IMG/VR virus record: IMGVR_UViG_3300022666_000086
Coordinates: 1 to 34,444 of that record
Strand: one strand, 5' to 3'
DNA: 34,444 nucleotides
DNA from: a virus
Taxonomy: Duplodnaviria; Caudoviricetes
In this document: positions 3,815 through 33,806 of the stretch, piece after piece
How positions within the stretch are numbered: position 1 is the first letter of the stretch
Layout of the letters: every line of letters begins with the position of its first letter
The notes under the pieces: model-generated
The model's database searches: none
Seen by the model: the letters and a program-made list of their open reading frames with translations, nothing else
Told to the model about the DNA's origin: nothing
Position numbers and translations under genes: made by a program

Positions 3815-3861
3815 ATGCAAACACCAAAAAGTTGATTATGCGGGCGGTCTATGGGTACAAC

Positions 3862-4392
3862 ATGCAACGATTGCTATTTATTGGGCTCCTGATCGCGCTC
3901 ATGGGCGGCGCGCAGGCGGAAGAACTGATCAACTACAGCGAGGATATCGGGCCTTACAGGATTTCCTTCAGCCTGCCAGAACTCCAGAGCGGGCCGGTGG
4001 AGTTTGAAAAGAACATATCCCAGACTGAAACTCTGAGCGGTGTGGTTAATGACAGATATGAGCTTACTATGTACTCGGGCGGTTTTACCGCAGGGATCTT
4101 GGTTGTTGACCACTACGGTGAGGCCATAAAGTATGACCTAGCACAACATCAGAAGGGACAGATAGAGTACTTTGAAAGTGCTGGTTTTGTTGTGGCTCCG
4201 GCAGAACGCAAAATTGACGGCGTTGATGGCACGATTTTAAGGGTGAGTGATGTGCCGAAAAATGCAGATCTCTTTGACATTTTCTACCAAAAAGATAGGC
4301 AAACAAGTGTTCATGGCGGGATAATGCTCCCCTGGGAGCAGACAGTGCCCCTCTTGAGGTCTCTGAATGTTACGTCCTTCTCTGCCCCATAG
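3862..4392 (+). CDS. Secreted protein (176 aa), the only convincing plus-strand gene; moron-like insertion
   Basis: ATG at 3862 gives a signal peptide MQRLLFIGLLIALMGGAQA; fills an otherwise empty gap; 3' end overlaps the TMP 3' end by 23 nt. Confidence 0.8.
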   Translation: MQRLLFIGLLIALMGGAQAEELINYSEDIGPYRISFSLPELQSGPVEFEKNISQTETLSGVVNDRYELTMYSGGFTAGILVVDHYGEAIKYDLAQHQKGQIEYFESAGFVVAPAERKIDGVDGTILRVSDVPKNADLFDIFYQKDRQTSVHGGIMLPWEQTVPLLRSLNVTSFSAP

Positions 4393-19267: not shown

Positions 19268-19516
19268 TTACTCCATTTCTGCCAGCTTCAGTAGCTCGTC
19301 TTTGTCCTTGAACCCGGCCCGTTTCCACATGGGCGTTGGGTTGTCTATCTCCATTAGTTTTGGCGATTTTTCCGTGCCCTGATCAACAGTGATCTTTGTG
19401 TCATCGATTGCTGCAAGTCTTGCCAGATCTTCCTTCGCCCGTTTCTCATGCTCTGGCATGGCCAACAGGTTCTCGTAATCCCGCTTGGTGAGCGGGCCGT
19501 CTGGATATCCTCTCAT
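19268..19516 (-). CDS. Small protein (82 aa) adjacent to the Mtd-like gene, possible fibre chaperone/adaptor
   Basis: ATG at 19516 after GAGGT (MRGYPDGPLTKRDYENLL...DNPTPMWKRAGF); the track start at 19594 overlaps the upstream gene and is unlikely. Confidence 0.7.
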   Translation of the reverse strand: MRGYPDGPLTKRDYENLLAMPEHEKRAKEDLARLAAIDDTKITVDQGTEKSPKLMEIDNPTPMWKRAGFKDKDELLKLAEME

Positions 19517-19566
19517 TTTTATGACCTCATGATATTGATTTTGCTGCGCATAGGCACGAATAACGA

Positions 19567-19692
19567 CTACTGTGGCTCCGCGACCGCGCGGCAACCGATA
19601 ATCGAAAGCGCATCCGACCGCCGAAAACTCGCATCACGCGCCCGCGAACCGCAAATCGTCGCACCATACCAAGCACCGCCCGCAATAACCGC
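19567..19692 (-). repeat. Putative DGR variable repeat (VR) with 3' G/C-rich element
   Basis: 39 consecutive codons with no A in the third position; 9 A in the first 114 nt; putative variable codons are NNT; near-pure G/C run GCCGCGCGGTCGCGG at 19592..19578. The partner TR is not in the window. Confidence 0.7.
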
Positions 19693-20661
19693 TGCCTGTG
19701 CCTGGTATGTTCCTTGACCGTAATGGGACCCTCTGGTTCCGCTGATATTCTCGTAGCCGAACGCAATTGCTGCGGCATAATCCTCTCCGGCTATGTAGCT
19801 CTGCCGATCCTGAAGCCAAGTCCACCAGACTCCGGACATGTCCTCCAAGCCAATGTTTGAGACGATCCTTCTGGATGCAGTATCCACATGTCCGCCAACG
19901 GTCGTCGGATTCGCGCTCCCGTAGATATTCGTCTCTTCTGGCGTGCCACTGTGGAGCTGCGCAAACTCCCAGTCTGTCATCATCCTAGCGCCTATATTTT
20001 TCAGGTCGTCTGCGAAATCGTAGAAATTCCGAGAGACAGTCGCGGCAGCTCCGAATACTGATGCGATAGATGCTCCTGTGCCGGAGAGGTGGTATATCGA
20101 GGCCCACAGAGGCGCATAATTCAGGCTGTCGAAATCGGTCGGCCCTCCCCAGGCAAAACCAGGAAGGAAGCGTCCATATGGCCGGTGCTTGAGATCTTGG
20201 ATAGACCGAGGGATGATATCTCCTGCCAGGTAGCCTGTGAGGGGGTGGCCGGATATCGTGCCAACATCCGCGCATTCGCAATGGAAGCCCCCTATCTTGC
20301 GGCTGTCTGCTGCGCTGTAGCCAGCCGGGTAGGTGGTTGCAGCACTCAGAACCAGTATAGGAGAGAACCCGCTGCTCGGAAGGAGTGCATAGACGTAGAA
20401 GTCCTTGCCCGCGCGGTTGGCCGCTACTGTATAGTCGTCCGGAGTCTGAGTATCCCAGACCCAAGACTCGTTGAGGTCCATCTCCAGAGCGGAGTCTCGT
20501 TCGTAAGCATGAGCACCAGCTCCACCAATGTTCACGAGCATATGGCTGGGGCTGACAAGAGTCCTGCGGTTGGCAGCGCTATCGCTACCCTTGTTCTTCC
20601 ACATCCGGTTACGAGAATAGTAGCCGTCCTGTCTGGCGGGAAGGCGGTTAAGGAATCCCAT
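19567..20661 (-). CDS. Major tropism determinant (Mtd)-like C-type-lectin-fold adhesin; probable DGR target
   Basis: AGKDFYVYA, SRKIGGFHC, GLEDMSGVWWTW, and C-terminal GGAWYGATICGSR.......DALSIIGCRAV, matching the Bordetella BPP-1 Mtd / FGE-type CLec pattern. Confidence 0.85.
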   Translation of the reverse strand: MGFLNRLPARQDGYYSRNRMWKNKGSDSAANRRTLVSPSHMLVNIGGAGAHAYERDSALEMDLNESWVWDTQTPDDYTVAANRAGKDFYVYALLPSSGFSPILVLSAATTYPAGYSAADSRKIGGFHCECADVGTISGHPLTGYLAGDIIPRSIQDLKHRPYGRFLPGFAWGGPTDFDSLNYAPLWASIYHLSGTGASIASVFGAAATVSRNFYDFADDLKNIGARMMTDWEFAQLHSGTPEETNIYGSANPTTVGGHVDTASRRIVSNIGLEDMSGVWWTWLQDRQSYIAGEDYAAAIAFGYENISGTRGSHYGQGTYQAQAAVIAGGAWYGATICGSRARDASFRRSDALSIIGCRAVAEPQ

Positions 20662-25102: not shown

Positions 25103-25696
25103 TTATCCCTCCGGATCGTAAACAGCCCTACACCGGCAAGACGGGTGGGCATGAGCAGTCATTTCGCCGTTGCTGAATGGTTTGCTGATAGGGATCTTCT
25201 GATTCTCTGATTCCAGTGCCGAACAGATATCGCATGTCCTCTCATCACCCATTGCCAGCCAGGAACGGGTCTTAATCCCAGCATCCAGGGCCTGGCGGAG
25301 GCCTGCATATTCATTCGAATAGTGGATCTCCGTCCGGTAGATGGTCTTCAGCCGGGCAGGACTTGCGAGCTGTGAGGCTTCGGCCTGCCGGGCGAAAGCT
25401 TTCTCTCCCTTCCCCCAGTTCTTCTCCAAGAGGTCCCGGATCTGGCCCAGGTCTGTCTCGGTGAGCTGTTCAATCAGATCCCGGCCATGGGAGATGTAGT
25501 ACTCCTGGCCTCGGAAGGGAATGTCTGCCCAGTCGATCCCCAGCTCTTTAGCAATTCGTTTGGCTCCGAGCTGGTAGGCCGCCAATCCACCGGATGCCCA
25601 TATGACCGACCAGAGTCGTTGGTTATTTTCCATCAACTTTCTTTTCAGATCTTGCCAAAACCCCTCATCTTCCAGGAGTTCGTCGTAGGTCTTCAT
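25103..25696 (-). CDS. Minor head morphogenesis protein (Mu gpF / SPP1 gp7-like)
   Basis: RLKTIYRTE, WLAMGDERTCDICSAL, HAHPSCRC motifs. Confidence 0.9.
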   Translation of the reverse strand: MKTYDELLEDEGFWQDLKRKLMENNQRLWSVIWASGGLAAYQLGAKRIAKELGIDWADIPFRGQEYYISHGRDLIEQLTETDLGQIRDLLEKNWGKGEKAFARQAEASQLASPARLKTIYRTEIHYSNEYAGLRQALDAGIKTRSWLAMGDERTCDICSALESENQKIPISKPFSNGEMTAHAHPSCRCRAVYDPEG

Positions 25697-25773
25697 TTGG
25701 AATTCCGCTGATATTTTTATTCACGACCTCTGTACAATTGATTTAAGGCCCATAAAATCGAAATTAGGTAGTT

Positions 25774-25974
25774 TCATCGCCGGGACAATTCATCCCAGGG
25801 CCGAAAATGTGGATACGATATCTTCCAGAAAGAACGCCGTTCTCTCTTAAAATTAGATTGAACATATTCGGTCTGCGAAACTTCGTCCACTTGTTCTATT
25901 GATTGTACTTTGATCTTCCAGTTGATAGATTCTATCCAGTCAATCAATTCAGGATATCTATCAGAAATATTCAT
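25774..25974 (-). CDS. Hypothetical protein (66 aa) in an AT-rich patch
   Basis: ORF only; no clear RBS. Confidence 0.4.
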   Translation of the reverse strand: MNISDRYPELIDWIESINWKIKVQSIEQVDEVSQTEYVQSNFKRERRSFWKISYPHFRPWDELSRR

Positions 25975-26020
25975 AATAAAACGCCAAATAAGACCCGTGC
26001 GATTGGGGTAAAAATATCAG

Positions 26021-26272
26021 TTATACGATTATTGTCGATTCGTTCAACTTTATCAAATTTTTGTCATAATCTATTGCGTAAGTCATGTTCTTCTCGATAA
26101 ATACCACCCTGGCATGGATGATGATCGGCTGGGAGTCGGATGATGGGGTAGTCAATGATGGGGGCAAAGATACATCCTCGCCTGACAGGTAACTTGCTAT
26201 CGTCACTACACCAGCGAAGACGGATGCGATACTTGCCAGGACGGCTAGGATCTTCTGGAGGCTGGTGGTCAT
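26021..26272 (-). CDS. Single-TM membrane protein (83 aa)
   Basis: MTTSLQKILAVLASIASVFAGVVTIASYL; its ATG overlaps the upstream stop as ATGA. Confidence 0.7.
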   Translation of the reverse strand: MTTSLQKILAVLASIASVFAGVVTIASYLSGEDVSLPPSLTTPSSDSQPIIIHARVVFIEKNMTYAIDYDKNLIKLNESTIIV

Positions 26273-26367
26273 CGTCTCGGCCAAAAAACGTAGAACAAAA
26301 TTAAAAGGCCTAGCCAGAAGCCGATCAGCATGCCAATAGACCATGCGATAGCATCCGGCTCGGCCAT
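26269..26367 (-). CDS. 32-aa single-TM microprotein, not in the ORF track
   Basis: MAEPDAIAWSIGMLIGFWLGLLILFYVFWPRR; starts 2 nt after the upstream stop and is ATGA-coupled to the next gene. Confidence 0.7.
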   Translation of the reverse strand: MAEPDAIAWSIGMLIGFWLGLLILFYVFWPRR

Positions 26368-26369
26368 GC

Positions 26370-27065
26370 CTACTCCTCTATGTCCTCAACGGTCACTACA
26401 TGATTTTTTGTGACTACCATCTTTTCACCGGGGGCCAATGCCGTGGTTGGAAGAACGAGCTCTCCAAGCCTGTCATCGACTGCCTGGACATTGTACAAGG
26501 TCCGGCTGCCAGTGTTGGTAATCTCGAAGGTGTAGACCACTTCCTTGCCTATGTCGGTCACGTTGACATCCGTAAGCTTGGTGATCAGGATCTCGGGTAT
26601 GGCCTCGATCTCAAAGACGGCACTTGCATTAAGGGAAAGTGTTTTGCCCGCGCCTGTCATAGTGGCCTCCGCATAATTGATCACCGGGCCTGGGAGCATC
26701 GATTCTGTGACTTTCATCTGGGCAAAACCTTCTGCAAACTCACCGGGTCCCACTTCAGTTGTGCTCATGGTTATGGGGCCTAGCAGGTCATCTACAACTT
26801 TGATGCCAGTGAGCTTTGCAGTGCCGGTATTGGATAGCCGGAACGTGTAGTTGGCCATCTCACCGGGCTTGTAGGTCTTCTTCTCCACGTCCTTCAGGAG
26901 GATGCCGGAGGCGGTCTCGTTGATCATGATCGCAGCATCCGCCTGGTTGCTGACGGTCACGCCGGCCGAGTCTATGCCGGTAGCGGTTACGGTGTTCTTT
27001 AGCTCCGCAGAGCTGGCTATACCAAAAGCTGCAAGCAGCGCAACGAATAGTATTAGATATCTCAT
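26370..27065 (-). CDS. Secreted protein with two DUF11/DUF7507-like Ig-like domains
   Basis: Signal peptide MRYLILFVALLAAFGIASS; repeated YTF.(L/I)(S/T)NTG...L..(I/V)..VDD.LG....T..(V/L).PGE unit. Confidence 0.85.
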   Translation of the reverse strand: MRYLILFVALLAAFGIASSAELKNTVTATGIDSAGVTVSNQADAAIMINETASGILLKDVEKKTYKPGEMANYTFRLSNTGTAKLTGIKVVDDLLGPITMSTTEVGPGEFAEGFAQMKVTESMLPGPVINYAEATMTGAGKTLSLNASAVFEIEAIPEILITKLTDVNVTDIGKEVVYTFEITNTGSRTLYNVQAVDDRLGELVLPTTALAPGEKMVVTKNHVVTVEDIEE

Positions 27066-27075
27066 AAAATTTACC

Positions 27076-27909
27076 TCAAGAAGATTTGGCTGCTCGTTCT
27101 TTCCGAGCAGCCGGTACTACTTTTTCAGGTTGGGTCTCGTTCTCTGGGACTACCTCAGGAGCCGGTTCTATTGCAGGAGTGTTCAGGCTCCGCACGATCT
27201 TGCCGCCCTCCAGGCTGTAGTTGTATTTGCTGTCGTTCACCGGCAGGATGTAGATGCCCTCTGGCATATTGATGTCCTGGTCCAGGCCGGCGCAGAAGCC
27301 GAGCCAATCTTCGGGGGTGATCGGCTCGTAGCTGACGTTCAGATGGGTGTTCAGCAGGTATTTGCCTACTGCATCCAGCTCTTCGATGGTGGCCGGGCGG
27401 CCTTCAGTGTTGTTGTAGACTCTGCCCTGTATGGTTGCCAGGCCGTCTCTGGTGTCGAACCATATCATAGAATCGACGTTCTCGCCGCCTGATTCAGTAG
27501 CTGACAGGCTGATCTCGGAAGCAAACGAGGCATCACCGGAGATCTTGGTTGCCCGGTAGTCCACCTTATGGCCAGCTCCTGAGCCTTTCACGGCGTACTG
27601 GGTCTTGTAGCCTCCTTTGGCCGAAGTCACCACAAACTGGCTTTTGGCCGTCTCGACGGCAACATCCTGCCCCCATGTCCGGGAATAGTCGTACATGATG
27701 GAAGCATTCTCAGCCATAGCGATGTCTGCACTGTGCTCAGAATCGTGCCGGTAGTCCATCGTGCCCGTGCCCACCATCGAGGTGTCAAGTGTGTTCCCCG
27801 CCCCGCTGACAGCGATCAGGTAAATAGTCGTCAGGAGGCAGACAACGGCGAGAATGCAAGAAGTATAAAAGTATTTTCTGATATCTTCGGGAGAGAATAG
27901 CTTGTCCAT
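27076..27909 (-). CDS. Membrane-anchored beta-rich surface protein (277 aa)
   Basis: ATG at 27909 after GGAGGT; TM segment CILAVVCLLTTIYLIAV; six N-X-S/T sequons; P/E-rich tail. Confidence 0.75.
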   Translation of the reverse strand: MDKLFSPEDIRKYFYTSCILAVVCLLTTIYLIAVSGAGNTLDTSMVGTGTMDYRHDSEHSADIAMAENASIMYDYSRTWGQDVAVETAKSQFVVTSAKGGYKTQYAVKGSGAGHKVDYRATKISGDASFASEISLSATESGGENVDSMIWFDTRDGLATIQGRVYNNTEGRPATIEELDAVGKYLLNTHLNVSYEPITPEDWLGFCAGLDQDINMPEGIYILPVNDSKYNYSLEGGKIVRSLNTPAIEPAPEVVPENETQPEKVVPAARKERAAKSS

Positions 27910-27928
27910 TCTACCTCCGTTGGGCGGG

Positions 27929-28144
27929 TCACTGTTCATTCAGGGCGGTGGTGCAGGAATCTAGAGAGACTCGTGTCTTTTCCAGCTCCGATCTTGTGAG
28001 GCTTAGCTCTTTTTGGAGCCTCTGGTTTTCGGCACGAGAAGCCGCGAGTTCTTGGGTCAGGGGTTCCACATCATGAAATTTCTTAGCCAGCCAACAGAAT
28101 GACAGGAACAGCAGTATGACGGCCAATAAGAGAATATAGTCCAT
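27929..28144 (-). CDS. N-terminal TM plus coiled-coil protein (71 aa)
   Basis: YILLLAVILLFLSFCWL followed by heptads LAASRAENQRLQKELSLTRSELEKTRVSLDSC. Confidence 0.75.
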   Translation of the reverse strand: MDYILLLAVILLFLSFCWLAKKFHDVEPLTQELAASRAENQRLQKELSLTRSELEKTRVSLDSCTTALNEQ

Positions 28145-28564
28145 CTACTTCGCCTCCGCCGTATCTGATATGGCCATTTGAGTGGCCGGGACCAGCTTCT
28201 GGAGGTCGCCTATAAGCTCTTCAACGTCTGGATAGAGGTCTGCGATCTCCTGGGCTGTTGGGGCTTTACCCTGTTCCAGTTTCGCTACTATTACTCGTGC
28301 TTCGGGTTCCATTCCCTGGATATCAGACACCACTTCAGTTAAGATGGGCTGGATGGCTCCCTGAGCAGCCAGTAAAGCCTTTTGCTGATGGGTGGTGATA
28401 TAGCCCACGGCGACAAGCCCGGTGATCACAAATCCTACCAGCTTGTCTGCATCAGACATATCCTGGCCGAATGCTATGGCCAAACCGAAAACGAGAATGA
28501 GGGACACGACGACTATCGGCCCTTTCATGGATTCTATTGTATTGTTTGCAGTCAAATTAACCAC
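28145..28564 (-). CDS. Two-TM membrane protein (139 aa), holin-like topology
   Basis: TM1 IVVVSLILVFGLAIAF, TM2 LVGFVITGLVAVGYI, then a soluble helical C-terminus. Confidence 0.7.
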   Translation of the reverse strand: MVNLTANNTIESMKGPIVVVSLILVFGLAIAFGQDMSDADKLVGFVITGLVAVGYITTHQQKALLAAQGAIQPILTEVVSDIQGMEPEARVIVAKLEQGKAPTAQEIADLYPDVEELIGDLQKLVPATQMAISDTAEAK

Positions 28565-28595: not shown

Positions 28596-28784
28596 TCAAA
28601 AACCACCAGATAATATGCGGTTCCTCTCTTTCAATTGTGTCAGATCCGCCATCATACCCGCAAACGGGGCCTGCTCCCCGGCCTTAATCAGCCTCTTGTA
28701 CTCAGAAAAGTACAGCCTTCGCAGATCCGCTTCCTGGGAGGGTAGAATAGGACGTCTATTTGGATTGGTCAACAAAATCACCAT
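28596..28784 (-). CDS. Small hypothetical protein (~58-62 aa)
   Basis: Overlaps the portal stop; alternative TTG start at 28772 preceded by GGTGA. Confidence 0.5.
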   Translation of the reverse strand: MVILLTNPNRRPILPSQEADLRRLYFSEYKRLIKAGEQAPFAGMMADLTQLKERNRILSGGF

Positions 28785-30288
28785 CCGGATTGAGATATCC
28801 GTAAAACTTTAGCTCCTCGATCGCAATCTCGCTTTTCTGTTTGAGAAGTTCCATGGCAGGCTCTTTGTCTTTGGCGGCGTCAACAGAAGGCAGTGCCGCA
28901 TTTGTCACCAGCTGCATGCCAGGAGTGCTGTGGAAGACCTCTTTCTCCTCAACGAGCTGGGCTCGTTCTTCTTCGGTGAGCGGGTCCCAGCCCATAACGG
29001 TGTAGAGCCGGTCGAGGGTTAGAGCGCCTCGTTCCCAGGCCGCCAGGGCCTGAGTGCGGAGCTGGGCTTTGTCCTCGTACTCCAGCTTCTTCCAGACGAA
29101 CTCGACTGACCAGTCCTTGAACCCGTTAGCCTCCAGGATTTGGGTCAGGAGCTCTTCGAAAGGTTCTGCTAGGTTTGCCCGCCAGCCGTCCACCACGAGC
29201 ATAGCCAGGTCCCAGAGAGGTTGGGAGGACTTGCTGACGGCGGCACCGTTCTGCTCGATCCAGTCGCGCGGGATGAGGTGGTTCAGGATCTCGGCCTTGA
29301 GCTTGTCGTCAGGCAGGAAGATGTCGGGCGGGATGGTCGTGTTGGATTCAATCAGTTCATGCTCTTCCCAGAGCATCAAGAACTTGTTTGAGCTGTAGTC
29401 TCTAAGAGCCTGACCACCCTGTTTCCAGGCCATCTCCCAGCGGTTGCCGGGCTTGCCGGTGGGAGCGAATGGTATCAAGTGGCCATTAGAATCCCTCATC
29501 TCTTTGACCCTGAGCCCTACTGCAGGAGCGGCGGCCCGCCGGATCTGGAGCATGATGTTCTTCCTGACTATCTCCCTCTGTAGGTGTGTAGGAACGATCC
29601 CCTCCAGGTAGCTTTTGCCGTCTACGTACCTAGAGCGCTTGTCCTTGACAACGAGTATCCTGCCGGTTGGGATCTGGAGTACCTGGCCGTTGGGTTGAGT
29701 CTGCCAGTACTCCATGCGACGTTCTTGTGTGTCATAACAGATGCCTTTCAGGAGCCTGCCCTCGACGTATCGGTAGTTCATCATGCCGTGCGGCGATGGT
29801 TGTTCAAAGCTGGTGGCATCGAGATGGACGGCCCACTCAGGACCTTTCCAGTCGTCTAGCCTACCCCAATCGGAGAAGTTGCCTTCGTCGTCCACCTGGA
29901 CCCCTAGCTCGACCAATCCCGGCCCGAATGCCAGGTTATCGATCCAGCATTTGGCCATGAGAGACTTGAGGTCGAGGACCTTATCGAACCGCCAGAGCTG
30001 CTTGAGGATGTCAGGAGAGATCTTTGAGGCTGTCTCGGGGTCCATACCGTCTGGTGGAACCGGGATGAGCCCCCAGCCGTTGAACATGAGGTTGAATATC
30101 CCCAGGAGGATGCTGTCTACCTGGCCTATCTCGGACGTGGCAAGAAGCTGGGATACGTCTATCCTCTTGTCCTCGTAGGACTCCTGGGTAGCAAACTCCC
30201 GGCCCACGAGAGAGAGTATGGGGCTCGATGAGTTGTGCTTCTCTCCCCCGAGGAAGGATATTACTTTGGATCGTAAAGAGTCGAACAT
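28756..30288 (-). CDS. Portal protein (510 aa)
   Basis: Directly after TerL; DNLAFGPGLVEL, DGKSYLEGI, VEFVWKKL and GALTLDRLY..MGWDPL portal-like motifs. Confidence 0.85.
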   Translation of the reverse strand: MFDSLRSKVISFLGGEKHNSSSPILSLVGREFATQESYEDKRIDVSQLLATSEIGQVDSILLGIFNLMFNGWGLIPVPPDGMDPETASKISPDILKQLWRFDKVLDLKSLMAKCWIDNLAFGPGLVELGVQVDDEGNFSDWGRLDDWKGPEWAVHLDATSFEQPSPHGMMNYRYVEGRLLKGICYDTQERRMEYWQTQPNGQVLQIPTGRILVVKDKRSRYVDGKSYLEGIVPTHLQREIVRKNIMLQIRRAAAPAVGLRVKEMRDSNGHLIPFAPTGKPGNRWEMAWKQGGQALRDYSSNKFLMLWEEHELIESNTTIPPDIFLPDDKLKAEILNHLIPRDWIEQNGAAVSKSSQPLWDLAMLVVDGWRANLAEPFEELLTQILEANGFKDWSVEFVWKKLEYEDKAQLRTQALAAWERGALTLDRLYTVMGWDPLTEEERAQLVEEKEVFHSTPGMQLVTNAALPSVDAAKDKEPAMELLKQKSEIAIEELKFYGYLNPDGDFVDQSK

Positions 30289-32340: not shown

Positions 32341-32400
32341 GAAGGTTGCGAAGGCTATTGCGTAGCTTGTGAAGGTTGCGAAGGTTCCAAGAACGTTGCG
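32341..32400. repeat. 14-bp direct repeat GAAGGTTGCGAAGG x2 (30-bp spacing) plus degenerate copies
   Basis: Exact copies at 32341-32354 and 32371-32384; related GAACGTTGCG at 32391-32400. Confidence 0.85.
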
Positions 32401-33806
32401 CCCTCTTGCATGGCCGTCTTGGTCCCGGACCAAGAGCAGTCTTCTGCAATGATGGTGCTCTGGACCGGCACCAGATCGGTCATGCAATAGCAGCCGCCTG
32501 GCGCATCTATCCTGCAATTGGTGACCTCGACATGAGACCGGCCAATGGCGTGGACACCAAAGTATCCTTCTATCAGGCAGTTGTCAAATAGGACATCAGA
32601 GCCTTCTTGGATGTAAGTCGCCCCGCCGGTCGAGTCCTCCCTAGTCTGGCTGCTCACCAGAACAGAGTTCTCCACCAGGCCGGTCCCATCCCGAATCATC
32701 AGGCCGTAAGAGCCTGTGGTATCGGTGCAGTCCATCTCGATGTCGCTCAGGGTGAAATCGTTAACCTGCCAGACTGTTACCTGGCTATCCGTCCGGAATC
32801 GTGAAGCACTCACATTGTCAGGGCTTCGGGCCTTGTAATCGTCGTTCCCATAGAGGACTAAGCCCTCTCTGCATTTCCAGCCTTCGGAGTCTATCACCGT
32901 GCTGTTGTGGCAGGTATCCAGGATGATGCCCTCCGCACCGCAGTTCTGGGCTACCACCTGGGAGACTATCTCGTTGGTGCCGCTGTCTCCAGCTCCGTTG
33001 TTCCCCAGGTAGATGCCAGATCCCCAAGAGTTCGTCAGGCCTAGCCGGTAGTATAGGCCGTTGGTCCGCTCGGACCCAACCAGGATCAGGCCTTCGCCAT
33101 CATGGGGTTGGCCGTCTGTCTGGGCTGCTCGGTTGCCATCCAGGGTGAGGTCTTGGACTGTGAAATCCTCGTACCCAGGATCATAGCCTCTGGTGCCCCT
33201 GATGAGCATCATGGCAACGTGCCTTGTGGGGCTACGTTGGCCGGGAAGCAGATGGATAACGGTCTCGTCCATCCCATCGCCGCTCATGACCATGTCCTTG
33301 TCTAGGATCTGGATGGCACTGTAGAAGATGTTAGAGCCGTCCGGGTTGAGTGCGAATGAATAAGGAGCTGATAAATTGTAGTGGCCCGCTCCAATGTGCA
33401 GGCTGCCGCCGTCGGGGGTAGCATTTATGGCCGCCTTGAACAGGTCCGCTGCATCCGATGATACGGGCAATGCTGCTATGGGGTCTCCGGCGGCTTCTGT
33501 GATAATGAAATTGTCCTTCTGGTAGATCCGGACATCGTAGGAGCTTTCTGGCTCCGGTGCTGGTTCGGCTTCTGGCTCGGGGTCGATCTCAGCTTCGGGT
33601 TCCAGCTCGATCTCCGCAGGCGATACGCCGATCTCGGGCTCAAATTCGGGAAACGTGATGTTGAGATGGGAGATGTTGACCGTCTGTAGATCTGGCATCA
33701 CGATCTGGGGTGCCTGGATGTCCGAGAAGCTGAATGGAGTGCGATAGACACCCACGGAGCCGCCGATGAGCAAGGCTAAGAGGAGTAATCCGAATATGAG
33801 TCTCAA
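32355..33806 (-). CDS. Secreted right-handed beta-helix (pectin-lyase-like) protein (483 aa)
   Basis: Signal peptide MRLIFGLLLLALLIGGSVG; P/E linker; beta-helix motifs LHIGAGHYNL, GDGMDETVI, LTLDGNR, GSGIYLG; TTG start. Confidence 0.88.
   Translation of the reverse strand: MRLIFGLLLLALLIGGSVGVYRTPFSFSDIQAPQIVMPDLQTVNISHLNITFPEFEPEIGVSPAEIELEPEAEIDPEPEAEPAPEPESSYDVRIYQKDNFIITEAAGDPIAALPVSSDAADLFKAAINATPDGGSLHIGAGHYNLSAPYSFALNPDGSNIFYSAIQILDKDMVMSGDGMDETVIHLLPGQRSPTRHVAMMLIRGTRGYDPGYEDFTVQDLTLDGNRAAQTDGQPHDGEGLILVGSERTNGLYYRLGLTNSWGSGIYLGNNGAGDSGTNEIVSQVVAQNCGAEGIILDTCHNSTVIDSEGWKCREGLVLYGNDDYKARSPDNVSASRFRTDSQVTVWQVNDFTLSDIEMDCTDTTGSYGLMIRDGTGLVENSVLVSSQTREDSTGGATYIQEGSDVLFDNCLIEGYFGVHAIGRSHVEVTNCRIDAPGGCYCMTDLVPVQSTIIAEDCSWSGTKTAMQEGATFLEPSQPSQATQ

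Follow-up and report, generated by a model that had tools for sequence, protein, structure and literature searches.

A mobile gene block centered on a viral sheath-like protein as a candidate lysis cassette of Methanothrix viruses

INTRODUCTION

What are six small genes for membrane and secreted proteins doing among the head genes of a tailed archaeal virus? The block in question lies in IMG/VR record IMGVR_UViG_3300022666_000086, of which we analyzed the whole 34,444-nucleotide stretch (here called the window), a 34.4-kb piece of a contractile-tailed virus whose terminase, gpF-like head protein, neck, tail sheath, and tape measure genes are all on the minus strand. Its genes, here named A to F, stand between a presumed portal gene and a gpF-like minor head gene, and an original prediction made from the sequence alone had taken them for an egress or envelope-remodelling module with holin-like, spanin-like, and sheath-interacting parts.

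The closest complete relative of the window is the genome G083 (locus L004, 59,835 bp), with terminase and head proteins 94-100% identical. We infer that the host is Methanothrix, because G083 corresponds to vir134, for which Methanothrix is the host in the supplement of PMC11576556 and the corresponding IMG/VR record likewise has a CRISPR match to Methanothrix. The Methanothrix envelope is described there as a membrane, a thin surface layer, and an amyloid sheath, and in Methanospirillum the sheath hoops are reported to be cross-linked through disulfides; further literature consulted is PMC10593813, PMC6242892, PMC4456609, PMC12596118, and PMC9796341. Holin genes in archaeal virus genomes are called elusive in a passage of a 2024 review (PMC10791045). 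We propose, at roughly even odds (about 0.5), that the block is a lysis cassette: the product of C, a sheath mimic with a single cysteine, would weaken the sheath, and that of A would act as a holin.

RESULTS

The block contains six genes under purifying selection

The six consecutive open reading frames (ORFs) stand where they had been predicted, all on the minus strand from 28564 down to 26021 (Table 1). They are tightly packed, as had also been stated (gaps of 0, 19, 10, 2, and -4 bp), and the ~3 kb said to separate the portal and gpF-like genes measures 3059 bp; the predicted counts of N-X-S/T sequons (2, 0, 6, 4, 0, and 2 for A to F) were reproduced. The ratio of nonsynonymous to synonymous change (dN/dS) against relatives is 0.07-0.21 for A, C, D, and F (0.07-0.11 for A), 0.12-0.44 for E, and 0.16-0.36 for B, with two comparisons saturated; the genes are real and under purifying selection. 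Two of the predicted architectures needed adjustment. The 139-aa product with two transmembrane (TM) segments, A, does have two hydrophobic segments, but its likely start is a TTG at 28555 (ATG at the same place in relatives), which leaves 136 aa. Likewise, the 277-aa product C has the predicted hydrophobic segment, but this is likely a signal peptide and not a permanent anchor.

C is a viral sheath-like protein with a single conserved cysteine

C is 82% identical over 277 aa to vir134_00026, the matching G083 gene, and its identity to vir525_00064 is likewise given as 82%; both stand with vir384_00072 and vir389_00038 in the list of viral sheath-like (SH-like) proteins of PMC11576556. Judged by its sequence, C is a member of this published family and the orthologue of vir134_00026. 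Medvedeva, Borrel, and Gribaldo (2024, PMC11576556) report SH-like genes in 75% of Methanothrix viruses and propose for their products, without experiment and beside other roles, a function in sheath disruption or as egress factors. At 277 aa, C falls inside the 159-288 aa length span of the viral SH-like proteins, which were selected in that study with SignalP. Its N-terminus has a basic n-region and a hydrophobic segment at 18-36, and because a G-x-A/G-N motif marks the end of this segment (Asn39 in 115 of 133 sequences), we regard it as a likely signal peptide rather than an anchor.

An AF2 model of C (pLDDT 86.9) consists of a helix at 7-35, an all-beta core at 40-194, and a short helix bearing Cys206. 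The core has nine DSSP strand elements, three of them long enough for bent pairs (12 strands inferred), the SH reference being two six-stranded antiparallel sheets; the PDB holds no SH model for comparison with it. Foldseek found no match to the model at E<=0.001 in PDB or BFVD, the best VIA match (Z 7.7) was to generic beta-sheets, a sequence search of PDB with C returned nothing, and the ESM Atlas has no named cluster for C or A. Weak matches of the model to pore-forming proteins (TM-score <=0.13) were discounted as noise from long hairpins.

Cys206 is invariant in 133 of 133 C proteins and the sole cysteine after the signal in 125 of them. The main SH family on the host chromosome, multicopy and present in 25 of 26 genomes, has at least five cysteines in 24 of 25 members. 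The C profile gathered 134 proteins among 5504 candidates; its named rows are vir525_00064 and Methanothrix or Methanosaeta records, along with one Synergistaceae and two Pacearchaeota metagenome-assembled genome labels that we take for binning errors, and an exhaustive search with C yielded 61 representatives. Among 81 host-family genomes the profile matched 19, five of them strongly, and several of the weak matches are chromosomal proteins that have in common with C the last strand pair and a W-L-x-x-C motif (probability 92%).

Small membrane genes precede C far above background

We surveyed the surroundings of 132 C ORFs collected by scanning viral, metagenome, and genome sequences; they form 42 clusters at 90% identity, four of them without a callable upstream gene. 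Genes were called by our own heuristic and TM segments by Kyte-Doolittle windows, and "small" means <=180 aa. In 34 of the remaining 38 clusters the gene directly upstream of C has a small TM protein as its product, and in 23 of 37 the second gene upstream does so too. Coarser clustering gives 16/18 at 70% identity and 6/8 at 60%, against a background of 5-6% in controls from five complete genomes (21/345 and 7/132). B lies within two genes before C in 18 of the 38 clusters, two further families, G and H, account for 15 and 11 rows, and several two-TM types also occur; mutual similarity among A, B, G, H, and the two-TM types is absent or weak. Because unrelated or barely related families fill these slots, we liken them to the slot beside endolysins at which unrelated holin families are exchanged, as a review passage describes. 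This pattern suggests an extension of the published SH-like gene and is not a demonstration.

Within these slots, A is found in 13 viral loci, and C follows wherever the contig reaches far enough. Its homologues number 215; the best 120 of them show 75-100% identity, and none of these carries the name holin. The sequons near the N-terminus of A are not conserved. A has the build of a holin, being small with two hydrophobic segments (holins have 1-4 TM segments) and a hydrophilic C-terminus in which 19 of 78 residues are charged, and its place two genes before C would be that of a holin next to a wall-attacking gene, provided that C does attack the sheath. We note a possible kinship of A and H: the H profile gives eight A tails 8-16 bits versus a best of 6.8 in 800 shuffles, while the reverse test and hhalign (5%) were not significant.

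Two observations concern the neighborhood of these genes. In the lineage of G084, another complete relative, a secreted 145-aa protein is encoded directly before A (L130:2750-3187 and L014:8750-9187); it has, as read by eye, a Cys-His-Glu pattern like that of transglutaminase-type proteases and no library match. The cassette at L156:1994-4422 contains a two-TM gene, B, G, C, an F-like gene, and a second, host-like SH copy up to 79% identical to chromosomal SH.

Predicted topology of the block proteins

The bias of lysine and arginine (K/R) around the hydrophobic segments, counted over related and not independent sequences as are the sequons below, places the C-terminus outside for C (65/74) and F (23/25) and inside for E (13/13, with the K/R on the C side), G (11/14), and H (10/10); B has more K/R after its TM segment in 46 of 47 sequences, a predicted inside C-terminus. 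Sequons exceed expectation in C (384 seen versus 144 expected), D (116 versus 50), and F (46 versus 14), as compared with 22 versus 27 in B, 0 versus 2.6 in G, and 13 versus 17.5 in twelve soluble control proteins, though such an excess is not proof of export because the tail sheath and tape measure proteins exceed expectation as well. On these features we predict that C, D, and F are exported glycoproteins and that B and E face the cytoplasm.

D matches PF24346 (E 1e-19) and has relatives in 32 of 41 host-family genomes, at up to about 35% identity over its length. The related Ig-repeat proteins of the host are mostly 400-3500 aa long, and the eight best matches lack an SH domain in the parts examined; we accordingly rejected the candidate explanation that C and D are the halves of a split sheath adhesin. 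In F, the Asn77 sequon is invariant (model pTM 0.35).

B has the N-terminal TM segment and coiled coil expected of an i-spanin. Its Cys64 is invariant in 17 of 17 sequences, its indels are mostly of 7 and 14 residues, and of 81 host-family genomes one has B, on a contig that is viral. Two B homologues have weak matches to Rz-like PHROGs (best E 1e-4), and generic coiled-coil families score equally. Given the K/R bias and the lack of a sequon excess, we favor for B a membrane-anchored coiled coil on the cytoplasmic side over an i-spanin. A cognate o-spanin lipoprotein was not found in the block: the D, E, and F families have no cysteine after the hydrophobic segment, and the cysteine in the signal of C is not conserved.

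The block moves as a unit between viruses

The block moves as a unit between otherwise unrelated Methanothrix viruses, and its addresses differ (portal-gpF, diversity-generating retroelement [DGR]-neck, and neck-tail terminator). G084 has in common with the window A, B, C, D, and F at 35-74% identity (E by hidden Markov model) and none of the window's head or terminase genes, and in loci L004 and L005 the block DNA is less conserved than its flank (81-83% versus 93-96%). In four of five complete relatives the block lies inside the virion genes, and in the window it is co-oriented with the head genes. The expectation that the cluster would be co-conserved thus holds in that the block travels together, but its composition is not fixed: D, E, and F can be missing, F also occurs without the cassette (alone in L099 and L100, and in L099 among nonstructural genes), and some C genes stand alone.

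Other lysis genes, lifestyle, and expression

The original prediction had named a conventional lysis module elsewhere, combined with a non-toxic A, as evidence against itself. No such module was found: scans of 44 proteins from the window, 41 from G083, and 120 of 177 others from G084-G087 gave no endolysin, holin, or secreted peptidase family; all that appeared was a prohead protease, a GDSL domain, and a tail chaperone domain. Membrane or secreted genes outside the cassette are few in G083 (a beta-helix protein, a 184-aa secreted protein, and a 77-aa TM protein). Of the five complete relatives, two encode a tyrosine integrase and three, G083 among them, lack one.

The secreted beta-helix protein is encoded before TerS in the window (32355-33806); in G084 it lies near the cassette on the other strand, and it is absent from G085-G087. 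A suggested partnership with the block fits its presence in the two complete genomes with a full cassette and its absence from the three with a reduced one, but the link is a weak one. Four metatranscriptome assemblies hold cassette-like contigs, three of which span only cassette, beta-helix, fibre, and mtd parts, mirroring the shared content of related viruses; because the runs were found with this stretch, they show neither timing nor transcription. A sigma-70 scan gave no excess over shuffles, with a consensus that is unsuited to archaea.

DISCUSSION

A proposed mechanism and the evidence against it

We hypothesize that C would be exported during infection by its own signal, would join growing sheath hoops by beta-strand addition, and through its divergent edges and single cysteine would loosen or cap them, because one cysteine accepts one disulfide and cannot pass the cross-link on. 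A, or in relatives H, G, or the small two-TM proteins that replace A or B, would accumulate in the membrane and open it late in infection, timing lysis as a holin does. B is probably a helper or regulator of A, and D, E, and F would have accessory roles, perhaps in holding C at the surface or shielding it there. A bolder generalization, put forward tentatively, is that a non-enzymatic single-cysteine amyloid decoy replaces the endolysin in these viruses and that A, H, G, B, and the two-TM types are the long-missing holins of archaeal viruses. The module originally predicted has gained ground in part, C being a published candidate sheath-disrupting egress factor that a small membrane gene precedes far above chance; the spanin analogy has not gained support, and A lacks significant holin homology.

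Several results weigh against the lysis cassette. For A, the best match to a PHROG holin is not significant (E 0.058) and Pfam, NCBIfam, and the ESM Atlas offer no holin homologue; its tail is net acidic (-7), and no slot protein attains the threshold of a holin family in Pfam, PHROGs, or NCBIfam; about 1 in 10 C clusters moreover has no upstream membrane gene (L047, L048, L153, and L164). The tie of C to host sheath proteins is thin, spanning only 43 columns for the second chromosomal family (92%), and C aligns to the main host SH family at the same place but weakly (probability 9%, E 0.0035). One cysteine need not mean chain termination, because one Methanospirillum SH study reports a single cysteine in a working sheath protein. 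The sequon excess in the tail sheath and tape measure, about twofold, blunts the case for glycosylated export, and an adhesin-like D fits surface display as well as lysis. Finally, the block of G084 is surrounded by genes for replication and regulation, not by virion genes, and stands behind a regulator-like gene.

Alternative explanations

Two other readings of the block we consider unlikely, to a similar degree. The sheath mimic might suffice for egress by itself, with the small membrane proteins serving as export, folding, or tethering aids for C (B or F, for example) and not as hole formers. Such a role would accord with the missing holin homology of the slot proteins, with the one invariant cysteine each in B and C, and with the position of D, E, and F close behind C. 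A dedicated aid for C nevertheless seems unnecessary, because host SH genes lack conserved partners, according to PMC11576556, and some C genes stand alone; the cysteine of B is predicted to be cytoplasmic, and the membrane would still need breaching, for which no other candidate cluster was found in the genomes scanned.

Alternatively, the block could remodel the cell surface, C, D, and F altering the sheath, masking receptors in superinfection exclusion, or changing adhesion, and A, B, and E blocking DNA entry. The Ig-like repeat that D has in common with host surface proteins points this way, as do the G084 block outside the virion genes, the nonstructural neighbors of F in L099, and the integrase in two of five complete relatives. 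Against this stand the co-oriented, tightly packed position within virion operons in the other four complete genomes and the presence of the block in three genomes without a tyrosine integrase, and surface remodelling would leave these viruses without recognizable exit genes.

It is improbable that B, G, or H self-assembles into a pyramid of the PVAP type that pushes through a C-weakened envelope. All three have a predicted N-terminal TM segment and helical cytoplasmic domain, the layout common to PVAPs, whose families have no sequence homology among them according to a review passage; yet A, B, F, G, and H gave hhalign probabilities below 1% against SIRV2 ORF98, the one reference sequence used, and the pyramids described in the review passages all come from Thermoproteota hosts. 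Least probable is a true spanin analogue, in which B would span outward, pair with C or F via the invariant cysteines, and pull membrane and sheath together: the Rz-like matches, the invariant C-terminal cysteine, and the heptad-length indels of B are outweighed by its predicted cytoplasmic coiled coil, equally good scores of generic coiled-coil families, the missing lipoprotein partner, the lack of archaeal spanin homologues reported in a 2025 survey, and a sheath that is protein and offers no membrane to fuse.

Genomic setting and further features of the window

The 62-aa ORF that precedes A also travels with it in another locus (L010) and is possibly a cassette member. For the presumed portal the name rests on its place after TerL, because it has no family match in Pfam, PHROG, or NCBIfam.

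Table 1. Coordinates of the block genes and their flanks in the window
Feature	Position	Strand	Description
Presumed portal (upstream flank)	28756..30288	-	Position after TerL
62-aa ORF	28596..28784	-	Soluble, conserved; overlaps portal end, precedes A; travels with A in L010
A	28145..28555	-	136 aa; two hydrophobic segments (about 12-30, 39-55) and acidic helical tail; holin candidate
B	27929..28144	-	71 aa; TM and coiled coil, invariant Cys64; predicted N-out/C-in; virus-specific
C	27076..27909	-	277-aa viral sheath-like (SH) glycoprotein; likely signal peptide 1-38, all-beta core 40-194, invariant Cys206
D	26370..27065	-	231 aa, secreted; two DUF7507/DUF11 Ig-like repeats; optional
E	26269..26367	-	32-aa single-TM peptide; N-end acidic, C-end basic; optional
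F	26021..26272	-	83-aa type II membrane protein; Pro-rich linker, small three-stranded beta tip, Asn77 sequon; optional
gpF-like minor head protein (downstream flank)	25103..25696	-	PF04233, E 4e-12

The 324 bp on the 3' side of F (25697-26020) are AT-rich (37.7% GC), correspond to ~70 bp at the same place in relatives, have no blastn match in any fetched locus, and contain an unconserved 66-aa ORF (25774-25974, minus strand). At 19268-20661 the window has an mtd-like gene directly followed by a small conserved ORF, a site occupied in G083, G085, and others by a DGR with its reverse transcriptase and accessory gene; by this comparison the window seems to have lost the DGR. A secreted 186-aa protein encoded between the tape measure and tail genes (3832-4392, plus strand) is 94% conserved in G083 and has no family match. 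G083 carries two TnpB/IS605-type genes (L075:3999-5147 and L076:9969-11072), the first of which is missing from the corresponding place in the window, and G084, a 69-kb circular virus record with PolB and primase, has an ORF of 3449 aa (L086:249-10598).

Significance and comparison with known systems

For the membrane crossing of tailed archaeal viruses at lysis, the SH-like gene used as an anchor yields a short list of small candidates (A, H, G, and B) that could be tested in Escherichia coli with no need for a virus culture. Because Methanothrix is a major methanogen living on acetate, its lysis by viruses matters for methane output. A natural capping protein for a functional amyloid would, if the proposal is true, deserve interest for its own sake. 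The center of the cassette, C, and the egress idea are already published, and the cassette with its upstream membrane genes was not found in print: of the papers listed for holins in Methanothrix or Methanosaeta, none is on these genes judging by its title, and a 2023 methanogen virus compendium may annotate them. C resembles the viral SH-like proteins of PMC11576556 in size range and proposed role, and probably in its likely N-terminal export signal and modelled all-beta core. That study treats the SH-like gene alone; its text and four supplements (figures excluded) contain zero occurrences of "holin," "spanin," and "transmembrane," and the sections consulted do not discuss the flanking membrane genes or the single invariant cysteine.

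Among host proteins, the chromosomal SH proteins of Methanothrix have the last strand pair and a W-L-x-x-C type motif in common with C, the main family differing by its at least five cysteines (24/25), and the DUF7507/DUF11 repeat surface proteins have Ig-like repeats that match D within proteins mostly of 400-3500 aa. The PVAPs (SIRV2 ORF98, STIV C92, and SIFV gp43) resemble B, G, and H in a small N-terminal TM segment with a helical domain and act in archaeal egress, but PVAP works alone, and the Methanothrix slot proteins have no detectable homology to ORF98. The holin-endolysin(-spanin) cassettes of tailed bacteriophages and the PeiW/PeiP systems of pseudomurein methanogen viruses differ from the Methanothrix block in that C has no enzyme fold, the host has a protein sheath, and the block has neither holin family homology nor an o-spanin; unlike an endolysin system, C would need no hole for its export because it likely carries its own export signal. 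With those cassettes the block nevertheless has in common a small, exchangeable membrane gene directly before the gene that would attack the wall, a location among late genes, and mobility as a block.

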